Part shown: in pieces, positions 40,634-40,871 of the stretch
Layout: each line of letters starts with the position of its first letter
Numbering within the stretch: position 1 is the stretch's first letter
NCBI GenBank assembly: GCA_031270385.1
Contig: JAISXS010000058.1
Location: forward strand, 1-40,871
Direction: 5' to 3'
DNA length: 40,871 nt
Source of the DNA: Puniceicoccales bacterium
Lineage (GTDB): Bacteria > Verrucomicrobiota > Verrucomicrobiia > Opitutales > JAIRKQ01
The notes under the pieces: model-generated
Seen by the model: only the letters and a program-made list of their open reading frames with translations
The model's database searches: none
What the model was told of the DNA's origin: nothing
Position numbers and translations under genes: made by a program

Positions 40634-40739
40634 TATAGTCATCTTTCCCGAGAAAAGCACATTCCCTAATTCCAAAAAACGGGAATTTTGCCGCTAGACA
40701 TCGTCAAATAGAATGCTTTTCTCGGGGAAGATGACTATA
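40634..40739 (-). mobile_element. MITE family A-type sequence (reverse), or the left end of the adjacent IS630-like element
   Basis: TATAGTCATCTTTCCCGAGAAAAGCACATTCCC...GAATGCTTTTCTCGGGGAAGATGACTATA. The last 9 nt are ATGACTATA, which begins the transposase frame. Confidence 0.88.
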
Positions 40740-40871
40740 TACAACGGATTTGAAAAAAGTGTGTTAAAATATGAAAGCACGCATACGGTAAAGGAAGCGA
40801 GCGAGACGTTTGGAGTGAGCGTGCGTGCCATATTCGAGTGGAAGAAGAAGTTGAGGGAGACCGGGAACTTG
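40731..40871 (+). CDS. IS630-family transposase, N-terminal HTH region (truncated by the window end)
   Basis: MTIYNGFEKSVLKYESTHTVKEASETFGVSVRAIFEWKKKLRETGNL fits the IS630 N-terminal pattern Y..D[LF]R..V......EA...F.[VI]S...I..W.....TG.L. The frame stays open to the window end. Confidence 0.7.
   Translation, partial: MTIYNGFEKSVLKYESTHTVKEASETFGVSVRAIFEWKKKLRETGNL

Follow-up and report, generated by a model that had tools for sequence, protein, structure and literature searches.

Bacterial MITEs that derive from IS630-family elements are well known, and include Nezha of cyanobacteria and the IS630-related MITEs of Microcystis. At the level of their general description, these elements are approximately 100–110 nt long, non-coding, palindromic and flanked by TA, as are the A-type MITEs of the Puniceicoccales DNA described here. 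As is common for IS630-derived MITEs, the copies are numerous and their ends are like those of a co-resident IS630-type element. The A-type MITEs differ from such families in that both ends resemble the right repeat of the IS, rather than one end resembling each repeat. Their density is also unusually high in the window (the whole stretch of 40,871 nt that was analysed), where MITEs account for 12% of the 40.9 kb and stand in end-to-end arrays. It is likewise part of general IS biology that the outward-reading ends of mobile elements can provide adjacent genes with hybrid promoters or start codons. The MITE at the end of the window is similar to these elements in carrying an outward ATG in its terminal sequence, GATGACTA, which is able to fuse to sequence past the flanking TA. 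It is unlike them in that fusion to the adjoining gene needs a secondary deletion, is absent from the second occurrence of the same junction (metagenome contig L005) and is buried in a hairpin. An IS accompanied by MITEs is an already-known kind of system; this one stands in a lineage with unusually dense MITE colonization.

Among described autonomous elements, the relevant comparison is with the compact two-ORF IS630 group (HTH_Tnp_IS630 plus DDE_3), with which the intact element found on metagenome contig L003 agrees in ORFs, terminal repeats and TA duplication. Annotated relatives are those of Neochlamydia, Rhabdochlamydia, Microcystis, Nostoc and Acinetobacter plasmids, and the annotated plasmid IS630 copies are 38–43% identical and likewise split in two pieces. 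No named ISfinder element matched, and identity to annotated elements was below 45%. Recoding on A-runs, by frameshifting or slippage, has been documented for IS630 members (PMC5009743). Compared with the compact elements, the copy at the end of the window covers only the first approximately 130 nt of gene sequence, starting at codon 4; it has no left repeat, leader or start, and is frameshifted.

A search with the 47-residue product of the window frame returned three short products only, all from a Puniceicoccales MAG. A search with one of these products, and then with an alignment, returned approximately 160 relatives, among them many fragments from Puniceicoccales MAGs and JGI metagenomes. 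The contigs of six JGI proteins were read (L003–L008), and the comparison of 5' ends within the close subfamily covered six only. Protein-pattern scans of genome and metagenome contigs identified distant relatives only (L001, 45% identity; L002, 36% identity). Also, neither the junction nor the sequence that encodes the HTH had a match among the viral contigs, and the plasmid collection contained no DNA match.

The intact element occupies 901 bp of L003 (4229–5129), with TA on both sides. Its left repeat, TAGTCAAATCACTTGACAAGAGCATA, and the reverse complement of its right repeat, TAGTCATCTTAATCGAAAAAAGCATA, match at 19 of 26 positions, as counted by hand from the sequences. The 48-nt repeat plus short leader is followed by ATG GCA TAC TAT ACA ACA GAT TTG. 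Two ORFs, of 131 aa (HTH) and 147 aa (DDE), overlap at an A7 run, with the stop codon falling within the right repeat. When joined by a -1 shift, the ORFs yield a 281-aa product that scores 162.8 bits on NF033545, with a cut-off of 100, and that also passes PF13358 (DDE_3) and PF01710. The continuation into DDE_3 was found in ORF2 of L003 and in the relatives P0004–P0008, P0026 and P0037. The A7 run lies at 4583–4589 of L003, and L004 and L005 have A8 in the same position. In some copies (L007, P0026 and P0037) the two ORFs are fused in frame. An ORF1 of 130–131 aa with the same out-of-frame tail is retained in P0021, P0023 and P0024, which are 57–60% identical. Because this arrangement is kept in such distant relatives, recoding at the A-run, by ribosomal frameshifting or transcriptional slippage, is probably programmed. 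Beside the intact element, at 1815–3889 of L003, short ORFs with WHH/Colicin-DNase toxin domains alternate with SUKH/SMI1 and Imm30 immunity-type genes, in what looks like a polymorphic-toxin cassette array.

The native element is thus approximately 900 bp long, with a left repeat of approximately 26 nt (TAGTCAAAYCACTTGA...), a leader of approximately 20 nt and a coding sequence that starts ATG GCA TAY TAT ACA ACG GAT TTG (MAYYTTDL...). Its own left repeat, leader and ATG are present in L003, L004, L006 and L007, all of which read ATGGCA, and in the divergent L008, which reads ATG TAC. In none of these five loci does a palindromic module separate the left repeat from the ATG. Proteins with the canonical N-terminus MAY(Y/C)TTDL(K/R) are P0002, P0006, P0011, P0012, P0019, P0030, P0067 and P0128, and diverged forms of it are recognizable in relatives 57–60% identical to the query P0009. 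Internally deleted copies that keep both ends occur at 3722–4217 of L007 (496 bp) and at 9877–10429 of L006 (553 bp). One type of deletion has numerous products, which end in KKDQG(I/L/T) and fall into clusters of up to 10 member sequences. The internally deleted copies have the appearance of amplified non-autonomous forms that stand between the IS and the MITEs.

The MITEs themselves are represented in the window by 55–56 copies or fragments of several subfamilies. Together they span positions 154–40739, amount to approximately 4.9 kb (about 12% of 40.9 kb) and are mostly arranged in intergenic end-to-end arrays, such as those at 27661–28116, 32095–32849, 35056–35727 and 37846–38423. With up to three mismatches allowed, the window contains 17 occurrences of a 26-nt end motif, where none is expected. 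TA is present on both sides of 28 of the 29 full-length MITEs from the window and related loci. Thus, the TA duplication that the initial annotation had ascribed to IS630 enzymes holds both for these MITEs and for the intact IS of L003. Another element adjoins 21 of the 58 full-length MITE ends, an indication that TA beside related ends is preferred. In L008, MITEs at 9665–9766 and from 10444 onward lie directly outside the left and right repeats of the divergent IS copy. In L004, a MITE at 2606–2710 lies inside the DDE-coding part of an IS copy and is followed by further nested elements. The MITEs thus habitually insert at TA beside or within related elements.

The ends of A-type MITEs match the IS right repeat at 21–24 of 26 positions and the left repeat at 16–21 of 26. 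The MITE ends of the window, for example those of the copies at 15136–15239, 38249–38351 and 16686–16787, follow two patterns. Both ends of an A-type MITE resemble the right repeat. In another subfamily, the core CACTCGACAAGGGCAT of one end is similar to the left repeat core CACTTGACAAGAGCAT, and this subfamily may be a true left-plus-right deletion derivative. Metagenome contigs of a single sample (L004, L005 and L008) contain IS copies and MITEs side by side. Since the MITE ends match the right repeat so closely, the IS630-type family is a plausible and credible source of transposase for the MITEs. The family thus plausibly fills the role of autonomous partner for which the initial annotation had made the element at the end of the window a candidate; the window copy itself, frameshifted and without 59 nt of the IS, does not.

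The MITE at the end of the window is a complete A-type copy. With both flanking TAs it comprises 106 nt at positions 40634–40739 of the plus strand, on which the parts of the MITE and of the transposase fragment described below also lie. The MITE proper, TAGTCATC...GATGACTA, occupies 40636–40737, and the TA at 40634–40635 is the left flank of the target-site duplication. It is the top-scoring full-length copy in the window (nhmmer, model positions 1–104, 96.9 bits), is 80–85% identical to other A-type copies and has ends that are complementary at 23 of 24 positions. These ends match the IS right repeat at 23 of 26 positions and the left repeat at 17–18 of 26. The element thus shows what is expected of a MITE: it is short, has terminal inverted repeats and no ORF of its own, is flanked by a TA target-site duplication, belongs to a family with many dispersed copies, and ends in sequences that match the right repeat of a co-occurring autonomous element. 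An Rfam scan of the window assigned it to no known RNA family. The sole Rfam matches in the window were two tRNA genes on the minus strand, at 5828–5900 and 9661–9733, and both are near MITE copies.

When folded as RNA, the module at 40634–40739 forms an uninterrupted 26-bp terminal stem (-47.7 kcal/mol, z = -9.5) that is retained when the module is folded in a 312-nt context. The left arm of the stem, which is the left terminal inverted repeat, lies at 40634–40659, and the right arm, which is the right terminal inverted repeat, lies at 40714–40739. The final 9 nt of the module, ATGACTATA (40731–40739), contain the ATG at 40731, so the initial description of a start codon within a long stem was borne out. 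The right arm also contains a TGA, at 40732–40734, in the ancestral frame of the transposase.

The last 141 nt of the window (40731–40871) are an open frame that translates as MTIYNGFEKSVLKYESTHTVKEASETFGVSVRAIFEWKKKLRETGNL. This translation, together with the complete MITE across whose end the frame starts, was confirmed as first described. Alignment with canonical copies places the beginning of the transposase sequence at 40738, within the first reading of the frame as MTIYNGFEK followed by an HTH region. The TA at 40738–40739 is at once the right flank of the MITE and the TA of ancestral codon 4 (TAT). From there to 40871, where the window ends, lies a 5'-truncated fragment of an IS630-family transposase gene that is identical at 97.8% (L005), 91% (L004) and 89% (L003) of its 134 nt. 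In the frame of 40738 the fragment reads YTTDLKK, which corresponds to residues 4–10 of P0002 and P0128, and then VC and a stop (TAA, 40765–40767). In the DNA alignment, 11 nt separate TTG from TTAAAATATG in the window, as opposed to 12 nt in L003, L004, L005, L006 and L007. The A6 run at 40753–40758 thus carries a 1-nt deletion relative to all five relatives, and only because of this deletion is the ATG of the MITE in frame with the HTH.

Read against the aligned relatives, MTIYNGFEK consists of three MITE codons and an out-of-frame version of YTTDLKK; it is not a transposase N-terminus. These nine codons stand in place of the conserved first helix motif of the family (DLKK). In the upstream direction the frame is closed by a TAG at 40695–40697, and 18 nt before the ATG at 40731 it contains an earlier in-frame ATG (40713–40715), likewise in the right arm of the MITE. 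Since the deletion falls within a homopolymer, an error of sequencing or assembly could account for it. In that case the frame in the window would be as in L005, with no ATG and with a TGA at the end of the MITE, and the truncation would remain. Another MITE copy contains a run of 11 G, at 26710–26720 of the window, where sequencing or slippage errors may likewise arise.

The initial annotation had described the HTH region of this product as a good match to IS630-family transposases. On its own, the window fragment scores below the cut-offs, with 18.7 bits on PF01710 (cut-off 21.3, from profile position 11 onward) and 16.8 bits on NF033545 (cut-off 100), and its HTH match begins no earlier than residue 11–12. 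The family assignment rests on near-identical relatives. P0002, from a Puniceicoccales MAG, is identical to the window product over the HTH and different solely in its first ten residues, and it passes PF01710 with 25.3 bits from profile position 1. Starting at residue 10 or 11, the window product is identical to both P0002 and P0128, the latter listed without accession or name. Because close relatives run on into DDE_3 and the joined product of L003 passes NF033545, sequence comparison supports the assignment of the fragment to the IS630 family, as had been proposed. The DDE region by which the proposal was to be checked is present in the family, as in L003, and the window ends before it. A second transposase fragment was not found in the window by tblastn and blastn.

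The position of the junction is evident from the canonical copies. Across codons 3 and 4 (hyphens set off the TA), these read ...ATGGCATAC-TA-TACAAC... in L003 and ...ATGGCATGT-TA-TACAACGG... in L006 and L007, that is, ...GCATAC-TA-TACAAC and ...GCATGT-TA-TACAACGG respectively. The window reads ...GATGACTA-TA-TACAACGG..., with the MITE joined precisely at the codon-4 TA, where an element that targets TA would be expected to insert. Because the left repeat, the leader and ATGGCATAC, which a simple MITE insertion would have left in place, are missing to the left of the MITE, the window copy has lost the first 59 nt of the IS, including the first three codons and the start. When the 200 nt before the MITE were compared with the leaders of five IS copies, similarity did not exceed that of shuffled controls. 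Candidate leader remnants picked out by eye in this region (TTGACA, GAAATG) also scored within the range of shuffled controls. A likeness of L005 to the L003 leader was matched by 4 of 300 shuffles and is not significant after ten tests. A complete IS is thus not present in the window: the left repeat and the native promoter or leader region are absent, ancestral codons 1–3 are gone and the frame is shifted.

The same junction occurs a second time on the JGI contig L005, where a MITE of approximately 102 nt (9877–9978) is followed by TACAACGGATTTG... in an identical MITE-TA-TACAACGG arrangement. The left flank there differs from that of the window and consists of the end of an EPSP synthase gene. 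L005 retains the ancestral frame (AGT to AAT, with no indel), so its MITE ATG is out of frame and a TGA stands at the end of the MITE; the gene is called from a GTG start (P0009). Thus, in the copies compared, a start supplied by the MITE is not conserved. The two junction MITEs are in the same orientation and are mutual best matches (71% identity, with 69% for the next copy). They are 71% identical overall and approximately 50% identical in the centre, while the IS DNA next to them is identical at 131 of 134 positions (97.8%). Both contigs end within the IS, that of the window 132 nt after the junction, and farther downstream the gene may have an intact reading frame.

The sequence that follows the codon-4 TA (TACAACGGATTTGAAAAAG...) resembles the left repeat of the IS, at 4288–4317 of L003, 3782–3811 of L007 and 40740–40769 of the window. 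None of 500 shuffles reached the likeness seen in L007, and one of 500 reached that of the window site to the L007 left repeat. In L003, the inner site ranks only second among internal TA sites in its likeness to the left repeat. Judged by this resemblance, the inner site at codon 4 could be a transposase-binding site or pseudo-end; the weak likeness may also be a by-product of coding constraint on the conserved DLKK. Joining of MITE and IS through microhomology was considered as another source of the junction and was rejected, as it would yield GATGACTATACAAC and the sequence observed is GATGACTATATACAAC.

Translation from the ATG at 40731 is inferred to be very unlikely, because the ATG is paired in the -47.7 kcal/mol stem and has no properly spaced ribosome-binding site. 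A purine-rich GGGGAAG stands immediately against the ATG, too near to serve as such a site. A scan for promoters and terminators of the ORF gave one weak promoter-like site (40551–40580) and no terminator-like sequence, which is no more than shuffled sequences gave. The initial annotation had also suggested that the buried start codon acts as a built-in translational brake. This idea is not supported, as the position of the ATG in a hairpin is not conserved across functional copies: of the two junction copies, only that of the window has the ATG in frame, and the canonical copies are without the hairpin. The hairpin is formed by the inverted repeats of the MITE and is not a leader evolved for control.

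Taken together, the end of the window is probably a decayed remnant of an IS630-family element, with an A-type MITE lying against its truncated 5' end. The most economical history, and the one favoured by the sequence comparisons, has two steps. A 5'-truncated IS lineage starting at the codon-4 TA would have been copied to new sites, and MITEs would later have landed on the flanking TA of the truncated copies, as they habitually do near related ends. In the window copy, loss of an A from the run at 40753–40758 brings the outward ATG of the MITE right end in frame with the HTH. The two-step order of events is favoured because the junction MITEs diverge far more than the IS DNA that adjoins them, and copying of a truncated IS gains some support from the weak resemblance to the left repeat after the codon-4 TA. 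A single origin of the two junction MITEs is disfavoured by the same contrast (71% as against 97.8%), although their mutual best match and shared orientation may leave room for a single chimeric origin. On the evidence of its first approximately 130 nt from codon 4, the window copy is a dead remnant, and by inference it is not mobilizable from a native left end.

Such a chimera would have arisen by insertion of a MITE into the codon-4 TA, after which the outer repeat of the MITE and the right repeat of the IS would have moved together as a MITE-headed IS variant. The MITE would then be the left end and 5' leader of the variant and, in the window copy, the donor of a start codon as well. It would account for a right junction shared by two loci that have unrelated left flanks and a preceding TA in each case, for the shared orientation of the two MITEs, and for a junction exactly as a TA-targeted insertion into ...TAC-TA-TACAAC... 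would leave it. The left end of the MITE also matches the IS right repeat at 23 of 26 positions and is correctly oriented to pair with it. A unit inherited whole should have diverged evenly, which is hard to reconcile with MITEs that are 71% identical (approximately 50% in the centre) beside IS DNA that is 97.8% identical. This history needs either two independent hits on one of 68 TA-started sites, counted over the two IS strands, or wholesale replacement of the MITE. Its parental form, in which the IS 5' end, the MITE and the rest of the IS follow one another, was not seen, and an ATG in frame in one of two copies points to no conserved coding use. A chimeric origin is therefore improbable, if still the strongest competitor of the two-step history. 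Its extension, in which a mobile hybrid of MITE and truncated IS recruited the MITE ATG by a compensating 1-nt deletion and has its initiation throttled by the hairpin, is distinctly less probable again.

The initial annotation had offered two possibilities for the junction. In one, the whole palindromic A module was the native left end and leader of the IS, and A-type MITEs were solo left ends. A MITE does stand directly upstream of the coding sequence in two of the six close-subfamily 5' ends (the window and L005). However, four close canonical copies and a divergent one have a plain left repeat and leader; the proposed A module is absent between the left repeat and the ATG of L003, L004, L006 and L007, and in L005 an A-type sequence stands at the junction as a MITE. 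Puniceicoccales MAG data contain MAYYTTDLKK products that are identical to the window product past the junction (P0002 and P0128). The N-terminus that is kept at 57–60% identity is destroyed in the window copy, and the MITE ends resemble the IS right repeat rather than a special left module. The native-leader proposal thus has very little left to recommend it. The other possibility, a MITE landing exactly at the transposase start and supplying its start codon, was nearer the truth, in that a MITE does adjoin the gene. The junction lies at codon 4, the first nine residues are spurious, and the MITE-supplied start is in frame only through the 1-nt deletion. A mis-join of MITE and transposase by the assembler, at a repeat near the contig end, would fit a window contig that ends 132 nt past the junction in a multi-copy IS, and an L005 contig that also ends within the IS. 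The identical junction was recovered in two separate assemblies with different unique flanks, and the MITE end and IS codons 3–4 share only approximately 6 nt (ACTATA), too short for an assembler to bridge; an artefact is thus highly improbable.

The main value of these findings is corrective. Because the apparent leader is the scar of a MITE against a beheaded and frameshifted IS, it would be wrong to annotate the ATG at 40731 as the start of a transposase or to present it as an example of regulatory design. The wider picture is of an IS630 element, its internally deleted derivatives of approximately 500–550 bp, and MITEs of approximately 106 nt that share its right-end sequence. The probable home of the IS, the deletion derivatives and the swarm of MITEs is a Puniceicoccales (Verrucomicrobiota) lineage with heavily colonized intergenic DNA. 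One feature alone is mildly unusual, and a modest curiosity: the same junction recurs at two unrelated sites. This recurrence suggests either use of an internal pseudo-end or a chimera mobilized from a MITE end, and it could inform how ends are chosen in IS630/Tc1-type transposition.
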